From positions 17,531-81,530 of the forward strand of contig SAAU01000003.1 in the NCBI GenBank assembly GCA_009929265.1: a stretch of DNA of 64,000 nt, written 5' to 3'. The notes beneath the pieces were generated by a model. That model had not been told where the DNA came from and made no database searches. It worked only from the letters and a program-made list of their open reading frames with translations. Every line of letters starts with the position of its first letter. Position 1 is the first letter of the stretch. The DNA comes from Alphaproteobacteria bacterium. Its GTDB lineage: Bacteria; Pseudomonadota; Alphaproteobacteria; CASFRQ01; SAAU01. This document shows positions 1,931-60,128 of the stretch, piece after piece. Made by a program: the position numbers and the translations under genes.

Positions 1931-2020
1931 TGGCGGATAGGGAGAGATTCGAACTCCCGGAGGGTATCACCCCTCAACGGTTTTCAAGACCGCCGCATTA
2001 AACCGCTCTGCCACCTATCC
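1931..2020 (-). tRNA. tRNA-Ser (anticodon TGA), class II with long variable arm
   Basis: The reverse complement reads GGATAGGTGGCAGAGCGG...GGTCTTGAAAACC...GGGAGTTCGAATCTCTCCCTATCCGCCA. It has a 7-bp acceptor stem, an anticodon loop CTTGAAA, a long variable arm, a GTTCGAATC T-loop and an encoded CCA. It is 90 nt long. Confidence 0.85.
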
Positions 2021-22934: not shown

Positions 22935-23597
22935 ATGAAAGAAATTACCTACCCTTTTATAAATTTAGCAAATGTTAAAGGTGTTTTAATCGACTTAGAC
23001 AATACGATTTATGACTTTGAGACCCCTCATCAAAAAGCTATCTTAGCAAGCTATCATTTTTTTAAAAAAATTATTTCATTTGAAGAATTTAAAGAAAAAT
23101 ACAGCTTTATCTTACACGAAAACATAAAAGGCGGACTTCCTTGCCAACACAGCCGCTATCATATTTTTCGCCAAATAGCCGAAGAAAAAAACCTCCCCTA
23201 TCCTTGGCTTATGGCAGAAAAAGTAAATCTTGCGTTTTGGAATGTTTTTATTAAAAATATGAAAGTAGATAAAAACGCCCTCGCCTTTTTAAAAGAAACT
23301 AAAAAGAAAAATATTCCCGTTTGTCTTGTGACGGATCTTTTGGCCTCTATCCAAACCCGAAAACTTAAAAGATTGGGTATTGCGTTTTATATCGACTTTA
23401 TGGTTTCAAACGACGAAGTTTATTGCGATAAACCCGATAAAAGAATGTTTGAAGCTGCATTAAAAAAGCTTCATCTTTCGGCTCAAGATGTGATTATGAT
23501 TGGCGACAATCCTAAAAGAGATATTTTAGGGGCTGATAGAATGGGAATTAAATCCTATTTAGTCACTTTTAAAGAAGGTAAAAATAAATTCCTTTAA
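22935..23597 (+). CDS. HAD-superfamily hydrolase
   Basis: Motif I DxD (LIDLDNTIYDF) and a C-terminal IMIGDNPKRDILGA motif (motif IV). 220 aa. Confidence 0.6.
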   Translation: MKEITYPFINLANVKGVLIDLDNTIYDFETPHQKAILASYHFFKKIISFEEFKEKYSFILHENIKGGLPCQHSRYHIFRQIAEEKNLPYPWLMAEKVNLAFWNVFIKNMKVDKNALAFLKETKKKNIPVCLVTDLLASIQTRKLKRLGIAFYIDFMVSNDEVYCDKPDKRMFEAALKKLHLSAQDVIMIGDNPKRDILGADRMGIKSYLVTFKEGKNKFL

Positions 23598-27555: not shown

Positions 27556-27566
27556 AATTAAAAAAA

Positions 27567-27596
27567 CTCCCTCTTTTATAGGAGGGAGCTTTTCTT
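27567..27596. terminator. Bidirectional terminator between convergent genes
   Basis: ctccctc-ttttata-gagggag perfect 7-bp stem followed by a T-rich tract. Confidence 0.55.
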
Positions 27597-29004: not shown

Positions 29005-29871
29005 TTATCTACTCTTTTGCGTAAATTGTTTTGTTTTATACATTGGAAGATACGTCTTTCTTTGATTTTTCTTTTTATCTTTTGCCATTAAATAAATATC
29101 CTTAAAGCTATTTATTTTGTTAAATATTTTAGAAATCTTATCTTTGTTTTTCAAAGCTTTTTCTTTATCAAAAATCACTCTTAGTTCATACCTTCCCAAG
29201 CTTCTATCATAATAGAGCATCGCATTTTTACCCTCTTCAAAAAAGGAACAAAAATCAAAAAGATAATCTATTTTTTTGGAAATTCTTTCTTCCTGATGAA
29301 AAGGCAATTTCGTGTGATGAATAACCTTTTCAAGCCTGGCATAGGCTAAAATTTCATCAGAGGGAATATGTTTTCCTTTTAGAATTTCTGGATAATACTC
29401 ATTGGAATCAAAACAGGATAATTTTTCTTCTATGTTTTTTGATAAATAAGCCCTCTCCATACTTTCTTTTAATTTCAAATAATCAGAAACTTTTATCGCA
29501 CTTCGATGATATTCTTTTAGATTATTCGTATCCCGACAGAAAGCATTATACATTTTTTCTTCAGCATCTATTTCTATCACCACAAAATCTTGTCGTTTTG
29601 GCATTCGTTCAAAAGGAGTCACAAAGACATTTTCCTCTCGATTAAAAGGAGATCCTGGAACTTGAAACGGAAAATGTTTTTCAAAAAATTCTCCCCCAAA
29701 GTCATTCTTAAAGCTAAAATACCTATCGGTATAACTTTCTAAACGTCCTTCTTTAATCAAAACTGAAACGGATTTTAGCCCTTCTTTTAAAATACGCTCA
29801 ATTGAAGCCCTTGCTTTTCTGCCATGGATATGCCCCAGCTCATGAAAAGCATAAATCTTATTCTTATTCAT
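29005..29871 (-). CDS. Hypothetical protein (288 aa) with N-terminal HExxH motif (AFHELGHIHG)
   Basis: I recognise no family. HELGH at residues 10-14 could be a zincin-type metal site. The gene is AT-rich and sits next to tRNA-Val. Confidence 0.35.
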   Translation of the reverse strand: MNKNKIYAFHELGHIHGRKARASIERILKEGLKSVSVLIKEGRLESYTDRYFSFKNDFGGEFFEKHFPFQVPGSPFNREENVFVTPFERMPKRQDFVVIEIDAEEKMYNAFCRDTNNLKEYHRSAIKVSDYLKLKESMERAYLSKNIEEKLSCFDSNEYYPEILKGKHIPSDEILAYARLEKVIHHTKLPFHQEERISKKIDYLFDFCSFFEEGKNAMLYYDRSLGRYELRVIFDKEKALKNKDKISKIFNKINSFKDIYLMAKDKKKNQRKTYLPMYKTKQFTQKSR

Positions 29872-39595: not shown

Positions 39596-39677
39596 AGAAA
39601 TTCTCCTAAAATATTTCTTAACGTATTTAATCTTTAGCATACAAAAAATGGAAGGAAAAGGATTTTTATAAAAAAAA

Positions 39678-40389
39678 GGCTCTTGACTAGCACTTTTTGT
39701 ATTTGTTGAACAATTTTGTAAGGATTTTTTGTAAATCCTTATCCCTATTATTATACCTAAACTCACATTCTTTCAAGTGATAAATGAAAGCTTCATCTTT
39801 AAGTCCATTGAATTTCGTAAGTCTGCGCTTAGCAAAGCTCCAAAAAGCTTCGATACCGTTAACATGGCTCTTACCCCGTGCGAACTCATTATGGCTATGG
39901 AACACGCGATAGTGGTCATACCCGTTCAAAACTAAGCCATCATAGGCCTTCCAGCCATCCGTATGTATAGTCGAACCTTCCAATATTTTGCCTTGAATAA
40001 TAGGCAAAAGTTCTTCCCTAGAACAATTCGGTACGATATTCACAAACACCTGCCCATTCCTTTTTAAAAGCCCAAAAACAGGTGTTTTACCAGCCGCTCC
40101 ACGTCCTCGTTTGCCACGCACCCGTCGAGCACCAAAATAGCTTTCATCAAGTTCAAATATTCCAAAATCACGGGAATTTTCTTCAAAGCTTTGGCGTAAA
40201 ATTATATCACGAAAATGATTGTAGTAGAGATTGATAGTATTGCGATTCAAGTTCAAAATTTTGCTTGCGGAAGACGCTGTAATATCTTCACAAAAATATA
40301 AAATAATACGACCTATTTTATAACTACTTAATCTACTGAATTTTATCATTATTTATCTTAACTGCCTTCTTTTTGCTAGTCAAGAGCCA
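39678..40389 (-). mobile_element. Complete IS1595-family insertion sequence (~712 bp) with 15-bp perfect terminal inverted repeats and an 8-bp A-tract target-site duplication
   Basis: The left end ggctcttgactagca (39678-39692) is the exact reverse complement of tgctagtcaagagcc (40375-40389). It is flanked by aaaaaaaa on the left and aaaaaaaa(a) on the right. A single transposase ORF lies inside. Confidence 0.7.
39687..40349 (-). CDS. IS1595-family (ISXO2-like DDE) transposase, 220 aa, apparently lacking the N-terminal Zn-ribbon seen in longer family members
   Basis: ASSASKILNLNRNTINLYYNHFRD...FELDESYFGARRVRGKRGRGAAGKTPVFGLLKRNGQV...GSTIHTDGWKAYDGL...HSHNEFARGKSHVNGIEAFWSFAKRRL matches the characteristic DDE_Tnp_IS1595 pattern. 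Confidence 0.7.
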   Translation of the reverse strand: MIKFSRLSSYKIGRIILYFCEDITASSASKILNLNRNTINLYYNHFRDIILRQSFEENSRDFGIFELDESYFGARRVRGKRGRGAAGKTPVFGLLKRNGQVFVNIVPNCSREELLPIIQGKILEGSTIHTDGWKAYDGLVLNGYDHYRVFHSHNEFARGKSHVNGIEAFWSFAKRRLTKFNGLKDEAFIYHLKECEFRYNNRDKDLQKILTKLFNKYKKC

Positions 40390-40467: not shown

Positions 40468-40543
<76 letters not shown>

Positions 40544-40668
40544 TAAAACAAAAGATGGATAGAAATACCCATCTTTTTTTATGCCTAATTTCCTGGCAAC
40601 TTCCTCAACTATAAATTTATATATATTTTTTTATAAAAACTATATCTATCGTTATAATCTTATTACAA

Positions 40669-41619
40669 TTATTTGTTTTTTAACATAATTTTAAATAATT
40701 TTTGATTTTCCCAATTTTCAGGAAACCCCATATCTTTATAGTTAATTTTATCTTCTGATAGCTCTTTATATTTATCAATTAAATTTTTTATTAATGTACA
40801 AAATTTACTTTTTGGATCAATAACCAAAAGATATAAAGATATAATATAAAAAATTGGATATAACCTATCTGTCCTTCCAAACTTAACACTAAAACAACTT
40901 AAAGAAGTATTGTATAAAGCTATATTCTTTGGTTTAATTGAAATTTTTTTATCGTATAATCTTGAATAATGCGCACAAATATTTCTGATATAGGATAATA
41001 CATGTAAAGAATTTTGAAAAAATTTACTATTCATTTCAAATGCCATTGCGATTCTTTTTTTATCCTCTTTTTTAAGATAGCTAAAGATATGAGAAATTTG
41101 ACCAAATGCTAAAAATTGATCTACCATCCAAAAAGGCAGCCCTTTATTTGAATATTTATTATGAAAATCTTTTAAAATCTTGTTTTTCTTATTAGAACTT
41201 TTCTCCAATTCTTCCTTAATTATGGCAATGGGATCATTAAAATTTTCTTTTTTACATTGATAATTACCAAAATCCATATACCAATAAGGACCAACTGTAT
41301 TACACATATAATAAGAAATATGCGTACTGATAGAAATTTCAATTTTTTCTAGAGCGTCTAGAATTAAAGACCTAAGTTTTGAATCGAAACGATAAAAATT
41401 TATAACTTCTTCAAATGAAATATTCTCTTTGAATAAATTCTTTTCTGTTGACTTATCCTGATACTTGAACCAATATCCTGATAACCTATAATACCCAATA
41501 TGAAATAAACATCTTCTTGCATATTCTTTGTCTTTAATCTTCATATTTCGAGATTCAAGTAAAGAAACCTGTTCTTCTATCGTTAATGCAGGTTTGTTAA
41601 AATTTATTTTATTATCCAT
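40669..41619 (-). CDS. Abi_2-family (AbiD/AbiD1/AbiF-like) abortive-infection protein
   Basis: 316 aa. The conserved C-terminal motif LSYIRNICAHYSRLYDKK matches Y..RN..AH..RLW/Y of Abi_2, and the N-terminus GYYRLSGYWFKYQ is also family-typical. The gene sits in an extremely AT-rich islet directly 3' of tRNA-Lys. Confidence 0.6.
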   Translation of the reverse strand: MDNKINFNKPALTIEEQVSLLESRNMKIKDKEYARRCLFHIGYYRLSGYWFKYQDKSTEKNLFKENISFEEVINFYRFDSKLRSLILDALEKIEISISTHISYYMCNTVGPYWYMDFGNYQCKKENFNDPIAIIKEELEKSSNKKNKILKDFHNKYSNKGLPFWMVDQFLAFGQISHIFSYLKKEDKKRIAMAFEMNSKFFQNSLHVLSYIRNICAHYSRLYDKKISIKPKNIALYNTSLSCFSVKFGRTDRLYPIFYIISLYLLVIDPKSKFCTLIKNLIDKYKELSEDKINYKDMGFPENWENQKLFKIMLKNK

Positions 41620-41946
41620 GAAAATTTCTCTAGATAAAATTAAACCCCTCCATGGCTTTCACATCATCAATCTCTAAGATTGAGCTAAGTGGGAGGGGTG
41701 CGTTAGATATATTTATATTATACTTTTGTAAAAAAGTCAATTACTTTTTTACAAAAGTGTTAAACAACTCAAAAAGAAAGGTCTTAAAAATTTAATAAAA
41801 AACTTTTTAAGTTTATTTATACGTTTTTTAATTTCAACCCCTCTCTTAGTTTTTATATAAAAATTGAAATTGTAAAAAAACATTCACTTTACTTTTTTCG
41901 AATCTTCTATATTATTTTATGGTAGAAGAGGAGAACAGGTAAAAAA

Positions 41947-43344
41947 ATGAAAACATTAAAAGAAATTTTACTTTCTGGTAAAAAAGTCTTTCCCTTAATT
42001 GAAGGGGGAAAAGGCATTAACGCAACAGACGGCATCAGTTGCGGAGCTTGGGCTCGGGAAAATTGTGTAGGGACTTTTTCCGCTGTAAGTCCTGATTTTT
42101 ATGATGAAAAAGGAAATGTCCTTGGGTATCATTTTGAAAAAAAGAATCGGAAAGAAAGACATTTAGAGCTTATTGAAATGGTTGTCAAAGGGGCTGTTGC
42201 TCAAGCAAAAAAAGCTTACGAAACATCCAAAGGAAAAGGCGCTATTCATATGAATATGCTTTGGGGAATTGCCGATTCTCACGTTATTATTGAACGCATT
42301 TTACAGAAAGTTCATACCTTGATTGACGGAGTTGTGTGTGGGGCTGGAATGCCTTTTCAACTTGGCGAAATTGCAACAAAGTATCAAACTTACTACTACC
42401 CTATCGTCTCTTGTTCAAGGACATTTCAAATCCTATGGAAAAGGTCTTTTAAGAATTACGTCGAATATTTAGGAGGCGTTGTTTATGAGGATCCTTGGCT
42501 TGCAGGTGGGCATAATGGTCTAACAAATGCGGAAGATCCGAATATTCCTGAGAATCCTTATGAACGTGTAAAAGCGCTTCGTGAATTTATGAACTCTGTA
42601 GGACTTCAAGAAACGCCTATTATTTTGGCAGGGGGAATCTGGTCTTTGGAAGAGTTTCAAAACTATATCGACAACAAAGATCTTGGTAAAATTGCTTTCC
42701 AATTTGGAACGCGCCCTTTAATTACAAAGGAAAGCCCTGTGAGTGAAATATGGAAAAAGGCTTTGCTAAAGGTCAAACAATCCGACATTATCTCACAGAG
42801 ATTTTCACCAACTGGGTTTTATTCCTCTGCAATTAAGAATCTGTTTTTAAAAAGACTTATTGAAAGAACGCATGGGGAAATTCCTTATAAAGCTGAAAAA
42901 GATGACATTTTTACAAAAGAACTTCAAACCTCCAAAACACAATGTGTTTATGTAAAGCCTGAAGATTTTAAAAAGGCAGAGCAGCAACTTAAAAAAGGCC
43001 TGACAAACATTGTAAAAACACCTGACGGGACGGTTGTCTTTATTTCTGATAAAAATTGGAATGAAATTAAAGAAGATCGAAAAAATTGCTCTGGATGTTT
43101 AGGGTATTGTGCTTTTTCCGGCTGGTGTGCAAGTAAGGAAAACAACAGCACAGGAAAAATTCCAGATCCTAGAAAATACTGCATTCAAAAAACGCTTTAT
43201 TCCATTGGGCATGGGGGAAGCATTAAAGAAAATCTTTTGTTCGCAGGAAGCGTTGCCTATAAGTTTGCAAGCGATATCCTTTATAAAGCAGGAAAAATTC
43301 CTTCAACAAAAGAGCTTATTGAGACCCTTAAATCTGGAAAATAA
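41947..43344 (+). CDS. Nitronate monooxygenase / FabK-like FMN-dependent oxidoreductase family protein with C-terminal Cys cluster
   Basis: The TIM-barrel motifs VVCGAGMPFQ and ILAGGIWSLEEF are typical of the NMO/2-nitropropane dioxygenase family. The C-terminus reads CSGCLGYCAFSGWC. 465 aa. Confidence 0.45.
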   Translation: MKTLKEILLSGKKVFPLIEGGKGINATDGISCGAWARENCVGTFSAVSPDFYDEKGNVLGYHFEKKNRKERHLELIEMVVKGAVAQAKKAYETSKGKGAIHMNMLWGIADSHVIIERILQKVHTLIDGVVCGAGMPFQLGEIATKYQTYYYPIVSCSRTFQILWKRSFKNYVEYLGGVVYEDPWLAGGHNGLTNAEDPNIPENPYERVKALREFMNSVGLQETPIILAGGIWSLEEFQNYIDNKDLGKIAFQFGTRPLITKESPVSEIWKKALLKVKQSDIISQRFSPTGFYSSAIKNLFLKRLIERTHGEIPYKAEKDDIFTKELQTSKTQCVYVKPEDFKKAEQQLKKGLTNIVKTPDGTVVFISDKNWNEIKEDRKNCSGCLGYCAFSGWCASKENNSTGKIPDPRKYCIQKTLYSIGHGGSIKENLLFAGSVAYKFASDILYKAGKIPSTKELIETLKSGK

Positions 43345-45844: not shown

Positions 45845-46816
45845 CTACCCTTTTTGGTTTTGGTTTTGCATCAAAACACTAAAAAGCGTTTTTCCTCGAA
45901 CCAATGTCTTTGATAAGCGATTAGCTCCTGAAATATCTTGAACAGAAATATAGGGACGCATCGGACGAATAAAATCAGACAAAACGTTTAAGACCTGTTC
46001 ATTATACGGCGTATTTAAAATATCCCAGTCTTCCGTAAAGGGTTTATAGGAATCTTCTTGAAGTTGGGTTTTAAACTCCCCTGCCCGTGTTTTGATAATT
46101 CCTTGTTTTTCGGCATTCTCTTCGCTTAATCCGTCAAGCAAAAACCCCCTATAATTAGCCCGATAGCGCAATTCATAATTTGAAAAATCTTCAAAAGAAG
46201 CCCCTAATTCATCAAATTGAAAATAGGTAAACTCTGTGGGATGTTTATAAAAAAGTTCCCGCACAATTTCTAACGTATCAACTTTTTTCTTCGCCCGCTC
46301 TAGCTTATCGAAATTTTCAATCGTTTGATCGTCATAAACAGGATATCCTTCATCAACGAATTTATCTTTATAAATTTCAACTTCTCTCAAGCCTCTTGCA
46401 AGAAGGATAGGAAAGCGTTCTTCTTGATTTTGCCAAGCAATATTATCTGCCAAAGAGATTACGAAATGACCCTCTTCAAACCCGGACGTCATTTGACTGG
46501 CACCTGCCAAATAGCGGACACGAATCTGTGTATTTGTTGTTGCATTCATAATCAGCTCTTGCCCTGGAATCGTTTCGGCTAACCTATCAATGGCATGATA
46601 AATACTCTCTTTATCTGCATAGACCGTTTCAATAGAGACAGCATTTTTCAACAACAAAATTTTGACATCTAAGTCAGTTGTATTTGAATTATTTTCTTCT
46701 GGAGGATTATTTTCCATATAAATATTTAAAATATCATATTCACAACCTGTTAAAAATAAAACAGACCCCAAAGTTAAAAGGGAAAACCCCATCATCAATT
46801 TCTTTTTAAGTTTCAT
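45845..46816 (-). CDS. Hypothetical lipoprotein (323 aa; lipobox LFLTGC)
   Basis: Signal peptide plus lipobox. I recognise no family. Confidence 0.4.
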   Translation of the reverse strand: MKLKKKLMMGFSLLTLGSVLFLTGCEYDILNIYMENNPPEENNSNTTDLDVKILLLKNAVSIETVYADKESIYHAIDRLAETIPGQELIMNATTNTQIRVRYLAGASQMTSGFEEGHFVISLADNIAWQNQEERFPILLARGLREVEIYKDKFVDEGYPVYDDQTIENFDKLERAKKKVDTLEIVRELFYKHPTEFTYFQFDELGASFEDFSNYELRYRANYRGFLLDGLSEENAEKQGIIKTRAGEFKTQLQEDSYKPFTEDWDILNTPYNEQVLNVLSDFIRPMRPYISVQDISGANRLSKTLVRGKTLFSVLMQNQNQKG

Positions 46817-46993
46817 TTTCTTCTCCCATAAAGAAATAATTTATCAATAGGTTATCCCCTTTTTTTATTTTTGTCAATTTTTGTTTTATAAAAAGAATTA
46901 AACATCCAATTTTATAAAAAATAATTTTCACATAAAAAAATGTGTGGATTATTTTTAAATTTTAATATATATTGTGATGCTTATGGAGGGAGT

Positions 46994-47812
46994 ATGAAAG
47001 AGTTTATTTATTGTCCAGAGGATTGTCCTTTTTTAAAGGAAGAGAAGAATTTAAAAAGCAAAAAACTTCCCTACTTCTGTGGACTTTTTGGCTTTTACTT
47101 AGCCACACATGAAGAGAATATCTTAAGATGTGAAGAATGTATCGGATTTCAAAAAGATGTCAGTAAAAGTGATATGGAGGATAGCAGAAATAGCGATCCA
47201 GAAAAAGAAGATATTGAAAAATCTTTAAGGCAAAAAGGACTGGGCTATATTAGTAGTTCAAACGATTTTTCTATTCATAAACAAAACACAAAGTGGGGAT
47301 TTTCGCGTCTTCCTCTAAATTGGCAAAAACGTTTCGTCTCTGTTGCACAGAAAATGGGCGAAATGGATGGGGTTCCCAAAGGGGTACCTTTAAGATCTGT
47401 TGAAGCCCCTAAAATATTACTTTCCAGCCTTTCTAAAAAAAGAATCACCCGAACCGCTCTTCCAAAAGACGCCCAAGAATTTAGTGATTTACTTACATCA
47501 AAGGCAGAGCAATTTCCGAACCTTTTGGATAAGAAAGCACAAATCCTTTTAACGAATCTCTTTCAGGTTTTAGATTCTAGTGAGAAATCAATTTTACAAA
47601 ATATTATTAAACAACCTGCGCTCTTAAAAAGCTTTATGAAAACCTTTAATTCTATGCCTAAAAAAGAAACTTTATTAAAGGATTTAAGAAGAGAGCTTGA
47701 GGAAATCGAAAAAAAGAGAGAAGACGAACTTTTCCAAGAACAGCAACAGCAAAAAGAGACATCTCTTCTTAATCAAAAATTGCGCCAAAATCAAAATATA
47801 CGGATAAGTTAG
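46994..47812 (+). CDS. Hypothetical protein with N-terminal Cys-rich (CPEDC...C...CEEC) zinc-ribbon-like region and C-terminal coiled coil
   Basis: Start chosen at MKEFIYCPEDCPF after a GGAGGGA RBS. A Q/E/K-rich coiled coil lies at the C-terminus. Confidence 0.35.
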   Translation: MKEFIYCPEDCPFLKEEKNLKSKKLPYFCGLFGFYLATHEENILRCEECIGFQKDVSKSDMEDSRNSDPEKEDIEKSLRQKGLGYISSSNDFSIHKQNTKWGFSRLPLNWQKRFVSVAQKMGEMDGVPKGVPLRSVEAPKILLSSLSKKRITRTALPKDAQEFSDLLTSKAEQFPNLLDKKAQILLTNLFQVLDSSEKSILQNIIKQPALLKSFMKTFNSMPKKETLLKDLRRELEEIEKKREDELFQEQQQQKETSLLNQKLRQNQNIRIS

Positions 47813-60050: not shown

Positions 60051-60128
60051 GCTTTAAACAAAACCCTTTCTTTTCCATTAAAGAGAGGGTTTTTTCTATC
60101 TAAATCTTATTTCTAAAGGAGAATATAC

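Follow-up and report, generated by a model that had tools for sequence, protein, structure and literature searches.

The DNA considered here, called the window throughout, is a 64-kb stretch (64,000 nucleotides; contig SAAU01000003.1 of assembly GCA_009929265.1) from an uncultured alphaproteobacterial lineage of low guanine-plus-cytosine (GC) content, represented by a metagenome-assembled genome (MAG). Its subject is abi, an abortive-infection gene encoded on the minus strand just beyond a tRNA-Lys(CTT) gene, together with a structured RNA that lies directly upstream of it. The tRNA gene, the AT-rich stretch that follows it, the minus-strand open reading frame (ORF) of 316 amino acids (aa) and an inverted repeat upstream of that ORF are all present where an earlier reading of this DNA, hereafter the original prediction, had placed them (Table 1). 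We consider it probable that the segment from 40605 to 41835 is a self-contained, two-part AbiF-type module, similar to type III toxin-antitoxin (TA) systems, seated in a recombination-prone slot between tRNA-Lys and an NMO-family gene.

The base composition of the locus is as anomalous as had been predicted. Between 40544 and 41946 the GC content is 0.242, against 0.360 for the whole window, and across 40600-41950 it drops to 0.19-0.27, with most flanking intervals at 0.33-0.43. Among the 39 ORFs of at least 200 aa in the window, the abi coding sequence (CDS) has both the lowest GC content (0.242, about 3.5 standard deviations below the mean of 0.367, standard deviation 0.036) and the lowest GC content at third codon positions (0.189).

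Table 1. Features of the abi locus and of the matching slot in relatives. Coordinates are those of the window unless a locus name precedes them; E, expectation value; IS, insertion sequence
Feature	Location	Strand	Description and basis
IS1595-family IS element	39678-40388		711 bp, on the other side of the tRNA gene from abi; 220-aa transposase (PF12762, E = 1.8e-30)
tRNA-Lys(CTT)	40468-40543	+	Conserved left anchor of the variable slot; ARAGORN, Rfam tRNA (67.7 bits)
Terminator-like hairpin	40550-40577		Between the tRNA gene and abi; 12-bp stem, T runs flanking it on both strands; terminator scan
Variable cassette	40605-41835		1231 bp, GC 0.238; abi, RNA and promoter; both ends from blastn breakpoints against L226, L227 and L228 and from boundary sequences
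abi CDS	40669-41619	-	316 aa, predicted AbiD/AbiF-family (Abi_2) HEPN ribonuclease toxin; R-x4-H motif RNICAH (R212, H217); Pfam, PADLOC, PDB, fold
Leader	41620-41643	-	U-rich tail after P1 (UUAAUUUUAUCU), weak Shine-Dalgarno-like AGAGAAA, then ATG; sequence
abiF-type structured RNA, putative antitoxin	41644-41699	-	Minimum-free-energy structure, covariance model R1, covariation, conservation
RNA elements, 5' to 3'			P1 ACCCCUCC/GGAGGGGU; P2 CAC/GUG; P3 CAAUCU-UAG-AGAUUG; 3' bulge AAAGCCAU
Putative sigma-70 promoter	41712-41740	-	-35 TTGACT (41740-41735), 17-nt spacer, -10 TATAAA (41717-41712); read from sequence
AT-rich hairpin	41721-41759	-	Perfect, 16 bp (ACUUUUGUAAAAAAGU...ACUUUUUUACAAAAGU), overlapping the putative -35 box; fold, inverted repeat I6
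DUF6119/TIGR04141 genes	L226:4238-5926; L227:365-2053; L228:243-2060	+	562-605 aa, "sporadically distributed" protein

The Abi Protein

The abi ORF, whose possible disruption had been raised as a test of the original prediction, is intact, and it carries both HIGYYRLSGYWF, which holds the GYYRLSGYWF block, and LSYIRNICAHYSRLYD. Its proposed membership of the Abi_2 (AbiD/AbiF-like) family was upheld by profile searches and by fold. Pfam Abi_2 (PF07751) matched the protein with 175.2 bits against a cut-off of 25.6 (E = 2e-51) over profile positions 2-184 of 184, and the PADLOC AbiD model (PDLC02344) matched residues 8-306 over profile positions 4-274 of 277 (E = 2.4e-72). The sole solved structure matched by sequence is chain A of PDB entry 8VZ6, "PbAbiF dimer bound to ncRNA" (ncRNA, non-coding RNA), which aligns from residues 1 to 299 with residues 1-309 of the query (E = 3.4e-42). 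An AlphaFold2 model, built as a monomer on 32 homologues, has a mean predicted local distance difference test score of 93.9 and a predicted template modelling (TM) score of 0.91; a Foldseek search of the PDB with this model returned the same chain (E = 3.4e-18, TM scores 0.82/0.87, root-mean-square deviation 2.9 A) and no other structure at E <1.

The presumed catalytic site is also preserved. Residues R212, N213, A216, H217 and R220 are invariant in the 32-sequence alignment, every family-invariant residue is present in the abi protein, and R212 and H217 align with R210 and H215 of PbAbiF, the double mutant of which is reported to be inactive (PMC12373285). The protein is also 29% identical, over 93% of its length (E = 8e-24), to the AbiF-like ORF of phiC2, itself 99.9% identical to the experimentally tested AbiF of Clostridioides difficile (PMC12373285). 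From sequence and modelled structure, abi is assigned to the Abi_2/AbiD-AbiF family, with a predicted AbiF fold and intact catalytic residues. The identical protein in GenBank, from an Alphaproteobacteria MAG, is entered as "hypothetical protein EOM53_02260" (NCB49487.1).

Selection on the gene can be gauged against L001, a relative that is 93-95% identical and that also carries abi in the slot. The two abi CDSs are 95.5% identical, and the ratio of the proportions of non-synonymous and synonymous differences (pN/pS) is 0.21, compared with 0.04-0.05 in neighbouring genes, which points to purifying but relaxed selection. Relatives of the protein also occur on mobile DNA: homologues were found in 380 plasmid records and 56 phage records, and a scan of viral contigs gave 171 confirmed relatives. 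Among the loci of close homologues, integrases adjoin the gene in L130, L134 and L137, phage-type genes (T7 gp13/gp14-like) surround it in L141, and Csm6-like and WYL genes are also found nearby in L134.

The Upstream Structured RNA

The original prediction had described abi as a single gene and had offered two readings of the inverted repeat upstream of it (cccctcc/ggagggg, at 41645-41651 and 41692-41698 in plus-strand coordinates), namely a regulatory element or an att remnant. The former pointed in the right direction; the latter found no backing, there being no integrase and no repeat of the tRNA 3' end above chance, as set out below. In the minimum-free-energy fold the repeat makes up a G/C-rich outer helix (P1), contiguous with a 3-bp inner helix (P2); a hairpin (P3) is inserted in the loop, and the 3' bulge AAAGCCAU is 8 nt long. 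The 161-nt stretch that contains the repeat and a second hairpin folds with z = -5.6 relative to shuffled sequences (0/200), and the 70-nt RNA alone with z = -3.0 (1/200). The start codon of abi lies 24 nt downstream of P1.

The RNA is identical to that of L001 at 57/57 positions, the segment 41620-41643 at 24/24 and the two together at 81/81, the adjacent non-coding DNA (promoter and upstream) being 92-94% identical; other homologous loci have U-rich tails at the same place. At the closest homologue loci, whose proteins are 41-46% identical to that of the window, each locus has the same RNA layout and placement. P1 is maintained by compensatory changes (CCCCUCC/GGAGGGG in the window, CCCCUUC/GAAGGGG in L002, CCCUCUC/GAGAGGG in L130 and CCCCCUC/GAGGGGG in L134), P3 varies in sequence from locus to locus with its pairing kept, and conservation extends to the joining sequences CACYUAG...GAYGUGAAA. 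A second subclass of the RNA, represented by L131, L137, L141, L142 and L146, has CGCU/AGCG as its P2. When 179 Abi_2 loci from metagenomes and viral contigs were scanned with a structural descriptor, P1, P2, the bulge and the U-rich tail were found directly upstream of the ATG in most of them.

These features were captured in a covariance model, R1, which was built from 17 homologue RNAs with the window and L001 excluded. Its best match in the 64 kb is the full-length model at 41701-41637 on the minus strand (24.3 bits, E = 2.4e-4). Across 100 homologue loci R1 gave 54 matches at E <0.1, of which 52 are on the strand of the gene and nearly all end just upstream of the ORF, so that the leader RNA is recovered at about half of the loci searched. 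Covariation was counted in an alignment realigned to R1 (A5), which was relied upon because the MAFFT alignments (A3 and A4) put the 3' strands of P1 out of register where bulge lengths differ; A4 provided no more than a rough seed. Double changes occur at every one of the 10 modelled pairs, in 62 alignment cells in all, as against 13.6 in shuffles and 10-15 in controls with the pairing partners slid, and 89.5% of cells are paired, as against 33-51% with partners slid. The two modelled helices covary across homologous loci. The inverted repeat appears to be a conserved abiF-type RNA that travels with abi, and what had been taken for a single gene is better described as a protein-plus-RNA module.

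Two further candidate elements were rejected. The repeat AAWTTMAACCCCTC (D11) had hinted at another copy of the RNA around 41830-41843, but R1 matches nothing there, and this position is the right boundary of the cassette, which the DUF6119 alleles described below have in common with the window. Two ORFs of 44 and 47 aa that precede abi, considered as its partners, lie in a region with 14 mismatches and 2 gap positions relative to L001. R1 also has two weak matches elsewhere in the window, at 60061-60097 on the plus strand (E = 0.026) and 27559-27592 on the minus strand (E = 0.11); these are hairpins with a G/C stem and a U-tract, in which P2 is deleted, and are probably ordinary intrinsic terminators.

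Putative Promoter and Leader

The -35 box of the putative sigma-70 promoter has a counterpart at related loci, a TTGAC[AT] box being found 34-35 nt before P1 in 9/9 non-redundant close loci, the window included. A strict promoter scan did not list this promoter, its -10 hexamer being without the final T. Transcription is predicted to start about 5 nt before P1; with this start site and the spacing of the -35 and -10 boxes, the RNA would form the 5' end of the abi transcript. The G/C-rich P1 followed by the U-rich tract resembles a terminator or attenuator, as judged from the sequence.

Two other potential hairpins flank the RNA. The perfect AT-rich hairpin that overlaps the putative -35 box loses its outer pairs in L001 (ACAAAAGU changed to AAGGAAGU) and could be an operator or insulating element, or could have arisen by chance in AT-rich DNA. 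On the other side, at 41595-41640 (minus strand), the Shine-Dalgarno/ATG region pairs as a weak AT-rich hairpin in the 161-nt fold, which recalls the translational control reported for lactococcal abiD1 (as cited in PMC13064643).

Cassette Exchange Beside tRNA-Lys

The original prediction had proposed that relatives be surveyed for the presence or absence of the gene and had argued for horizontal acquisition from the tRNA, the composition and a neighbouring IS. The survey was informative. Three relatives, L226 (GCA_028706035.1), L227 and L228, were found through the 90% cluster of the neighbouring NMO-family protein, and their flanks are 94-98% identical to the window in nucleotide sequence (98% in L226); as far as the contigs reach, they have rfbBDCA, tRNA-Lys, the NMO gene, RNase R and what follows in common with the window. 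Each of the three has, in place of 40605-41835, a segment of about 1.9 kb with a DUF6119/TIGR04141 gene on the opposite strand. These genes are of two variants, that of L226 and L227 being only about 28% identical to that of L228, and all three cargoes of the slot are AT-rich (GC 0.23-0.25, against 0.37 in the flanks).

The left breakpoint of the exchanged segment lies about 61 nt past the tRNA, with L228 sharing 57 nt more with the window (to 40661), and the right breakpoint is at 41835/41836, where every allele resumes with AACCCCTCTCTTAG. The tRNA gene itself is identical to that of L001 at 76/76 positions and is also found in L226; the terminator-like hairpin beyond it belongs to the conserved flank, outside the cassette, its sequence being common to L226, L227 and L228. 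With a pS against L001 of 0.13 in abi and 0.19-0.29 in its neighbours, abi was already there before the window and L001 diverged. The cassette includes both the RNA and the promoter, consistent with a module that moves as a unit. A scan of genome contigs with the NMO-family protein gave a further 46 loci at 45-63% identity, none with Abi, RNase R or rfbA within 8 kb; these are uninformative as to the presence or absence of abi because synteny is lost at that level of identity.

Two of the clues on which horizontal acquisition had been argued did not hold. A direct repeat of the tRNA-Lys 3' end, which had been suggested as a check, was sought without success: the best match is 8/9 nt, no better than those of 43% of shuffles and 49% of other window segments, and there is no 24-mer match with up to 3 mismatches. 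The cassette contains no integrase ORF and no replication genes. The IS1595-family element, single-copy in the window, sits between the rfbA start and the tRNA-Lys promoter region and is bounded by perfect 15-nt terminal inverted repeats (39678-39692 and 40374-40388) and an 8-bp A-tract target duplication. L001 carries abi but lacks the element, and L226, with a different cargo, lacks it too; as it also has its own target duplication, it is a separate insertion, irrelevant to the acquisition of abi. The compositional anomaly stands, and the decisive evidence for horizontal movement is the polymorphism of the cassette in L226, L227 and L228, which supports the view that the segment is horizontally exchangeable cargo beside tRNA-Lys; the likeliest route of exchange would be homologous recombination through the conserved flanks.

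It is possible, and we put it forward only tentatively, that the slot between tRNA-Lys and the NMO-family gene is a defence hotspot driven by homologous recombination, in which the AbiF-RNA module and the two DUF6119/TIGR04141 genes are interchangeable alleles. If so, DUF6119 would be a candidate single-gene anti-phage system, and the three-allele polymorphism would mark a defined hotspot in this lineage; DUF6119/TIGR04141 is a candidate defence gene by its location only. The DUF6119 family has no PADLOC match and no relative in the PDB by sequence, a lenient Pfam scan gave nothing useful, and the library searched held no functional literature on DUF6119/TIGR04141.

Comparison With Known Systems

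AbiD and AbiF systems are described as two-component type III TA modules in which a HEPN ribonuclease (RNase) toxin is neutralized by a cis-encoded ncRNA that binds the toxin and occludes its active site (PMC12373285, PMC12737573, PMC13064643); the PbAbiF/AbiFr work and the lactococcal systems are taken here as summarized in reviews (PMC12737573, PMC13064643). The module of the window agrees with this description, its RNA variant being the one point of difference. The closest structural precedent is PbAbiF-AbiFr, a Prevotellaceae AbiF with its ncRNA, represented by PDB 8VZ6 (Zilberzwige-Tal et al., 2025, as cited in PMC12737573 and PMC12373285). The window protein is homologous to PbAbiF from end to end at about 30% identity, with the same predicted fold and with the R-x4-H residues aligned, and in both systems a structured RNA with a P1/P2/3'-bulge layout is encoded in cis directly upstream. 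The RNAs differ in that the window has CAC/GUG rather than CGCU/AGCG as P2, a 15-nt hairpin in the loop and the 8-nt bulge; this comparison uses the RNAs of the loci that come nearest to PbAbiF, the proteins of which are about 43% identical and the promoters of Bacteroidota type. Those loci (L051, L055, L071, L077, L102, L111 and L151) form a tight RNA class of their own, GCUUACCC-CGCU-UCCCGUAAGAAC-AGCG-CGCUCA-GGGUAAGC, situated about 110 nt upstream of the abi ORF and preceded by Bacteroidota-like -7 promoter boxes of the TnnTTTG type. P3, the hairpin inserted in the RNA subclass of the window, might serve in sensing or in specificity instead of being a neutral decoration.

The AbiF-RCd22 system of C. 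difficile (phi027/phiC2 prophage) likewise has an Abi_2 protein, and its leader RNA and toxin gene share a promoter, with a terminator-like element before the ORF (PMC12373285), a layout that is putatively the same in the window. RCd22 comprises two RF03085 motifs and a separate terminator, whereas the window has one divergent motif, and P1 with the U-tract is its only terminator-like element; the C. difficile system resides in a prophage lysis module and that of the window in a chromosomal slot beside a tRNA. The Rfam family RF03085 itself, a 37-nt model that can be outlined as CCCGCC-A-AGC-loop-GCU-CAAAUC-GGCGGG, shares with the window RNA a G/C-rich outer helix, a 3-bp inner helix, a 3' bulge of 5-8 nt (CAAAUC, AAAAUC and AAAGCCAU in the Rfam model, L002 and the window, respectively) and a place directly upstream of Abi_2 genes. 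It differs in reach, leaving the window RNA undetected: at its gathering score RF03085 detected 3/20 Abi_2 loci, as against the R1 matches reported above at a laxer threshold, and it reported none of L051, L055 and L071, the three PbAbiF-closest loci in its 20-locus search. A broader RNA model than RF03085 places the hairpin-inserted subclass within the abiF architecture.

Lactococcal AbiD, AbiD1 and AbiF, which are plasmid-borne, fall in the same Pfam family and under the same PADLOC AbiD model as the window protein and are classed as systems of a protein with an upstream RNA (PMC13064643). The likeness is through family models, the nearest lactococcal sequence among the matches found being an ORF of phage TP712 at 27% identity, and the host of the window, an uncultured low-GC alphaproteobacterial MAG, is unlike theirs. 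ToxIN and AbiQ resemble the module, by analogy, in pairing an RNase toxin with a cis-encoded RNA that restrains it and in having a terminator-like element that sets the ratio of RNA to toxin. Their toxin fold is unrelated and not HEPN, however, and their antitoxin is a tandem repeat array processed by the toxin, whereas the window has a single hairpin motif.

Proposed Mechanism and Alternative Explanations

In kind, the module is an ordinary AbiF-type HEPN toxin with a putative RNA antitoxin; its additions to what is known are an RNA variant undetected by RF03085 and the three-allele slot discussed above as a possible hotspot. In the mechanism that we propose, one promoter would start a transcript of which the first 60 nt or so would fold as the abiF-type RNA with its A-rich 3' bulge, followed by the U-rich tract and by the abi ORF, predicted to encode a HEPN RNase with R212 and H217 as catalytic residues. 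The analogy of PbAbiF/AbiFr and C. difficile AbiF/RCd22 suggests that the RNA would limit read-through into the toxin gene and would also bind the toxin dimer and block its active site. Phage infection would upset this balance, and the RNase activity so freed would arrest the cell and abort the infection. On the same analogy, the small upstream RNA most likely keeps the abi toxin in check, and we infer transcription, RNA-protein binding, toxicity, a phage trigger and a defence phenotype for the module. Recognition of the RNA changes how the module would be annotated, cloned and tested, an ORF taken without its leader being expected to be toxic.

Several observations weigh against this interpretation. 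RF03085 has no match in the window RNA even at E <=10, whether 1.8 kb or 101 nt was submitted, and the Rfam searches of these two segments returned only noise around the hairpin, from microRNA and small nucleolar RNA models; the RNA is therefore divergent, and it is equated with AbiFr by its architecture, its position and model R1. The fit of alignment A5 to R1 biases the pairing counts upward, an effect that is lessened by the slid controls and by leaving the window out of the seed. The -10 hexamer is imperfect and the Shine-Dalgarno weak, and the toxicity, RNA binding and phage defence proposed for the module are drawn from its homologues. There is, moreover, a single copy of the RNA at the abi locus, where RCd22 has two motifs and classical type III antitoxins are tandem repeats.

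The alternatives divide according to what they make of the RNA and of the function of the module. A single-protein Abi, whose upstream hairpin acts solely in cis as an attenuator or in translational control and does not bind the toxin, would account for the terminator-like appearance of P1 with its U-rich tract, for the plain terminator-like hairpins that are R1's other two matches in the window, and for the weak pairing of the ATG region; RCd22 is reported also to act by premature termination before the toxin gene (PMC12373285). A plain terminator has no need, however, of a conserved P2, an A-rich 3' bulge or the loop sequences CACYUAG...GAYGUGAAA across proteins that are 41-46% identical, and the RNA is protein-bound in the solved homologue 8VZ6; we regard this explanation as unlikely. 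The module might instead serve addiction or stabilization and play no part in defending this host against phage, a role in maintenance having been proposed for C. difficile AbiF, for which anti-phage activity could not be demonstrated (PMC12373285). This is quite improbable for a module in a chromosomal slot, where the cassette, lacking integrase and replication genes, presents no mobile element to be stabilized; lactococcal AbiD, AbiD1 and AbiF do confer phage resistance (PMC13064643), and unrelated cargoes turn over in the slot as in defence hotspots.

The remaining two explanations bear on the history of the segment. That abi is a decaying, non-functional foreign gene is very improbable: its extreme AT content, a pN/pS above that of its neighbours and its GenBank label as a hypothetical protein are what such a gene might show, but the ORF is uninterrupted and, compared with 8VZ6, complete, the family-invariant residues are all present, pN/pS stays well under 1, and neither the RNA nor the leader differs at any position from that of L001. 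We give almost no credence to the idea that the segment is what is left of an island inserted by an integrase at the tRNA-Lys 3' end, the inverted repeat being its att scar, or that it is cargo mobilized by the IS, as the adjoining tRNA, the anomalous composition and the nearby IS had suggested; the tRNA 3'-end repeat is at chance level, the cassette has no integrase, the IS has its own target-site duplication and is missing from two relatives, and the supposed scar is a covarying RNA. An AbiF-type protein-plus-RNA module carried in an exchangeable cassette is the reading that we prefer.

Other Features of the Window

Beyond the abi locus, the IS1595-family element makes the rfbA frame seem to reach a GTG at 39766, and the real rfbA start is probably near 39598 (MKGILLAGG). 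A second copy of the IS, suggested by a 220-aa ORF at 22935, was ruled out, that ORF being a HAD hydrolase. In L001, RNase R is called as two ORFs of 605 and 141 aa (L001:1865-4089) with 19 gap positions relative to the window; the split reflects a frameshift, which may be genuine or may come from misassembly, coverage being about 3x. No Pfam match was found for three ORFs, 288-323 aa long, at 29005-29871 (minus strand; low GC, 0.304), 45845-46816 (minus strand) and 46940-47812 (plus strand). A further ORF of low GC content (0.276), at 7-1293 on the plus strand, codes for a large serine recombinase (Pfam Recombinase, E = 1e-13, with the end of a Resolvase domain); it is possibly cut by the left edge of the window, lies about 640 nt from tRNA-Ser(TGA) (1931-2020, minus strand) and may belong to another integrated element.

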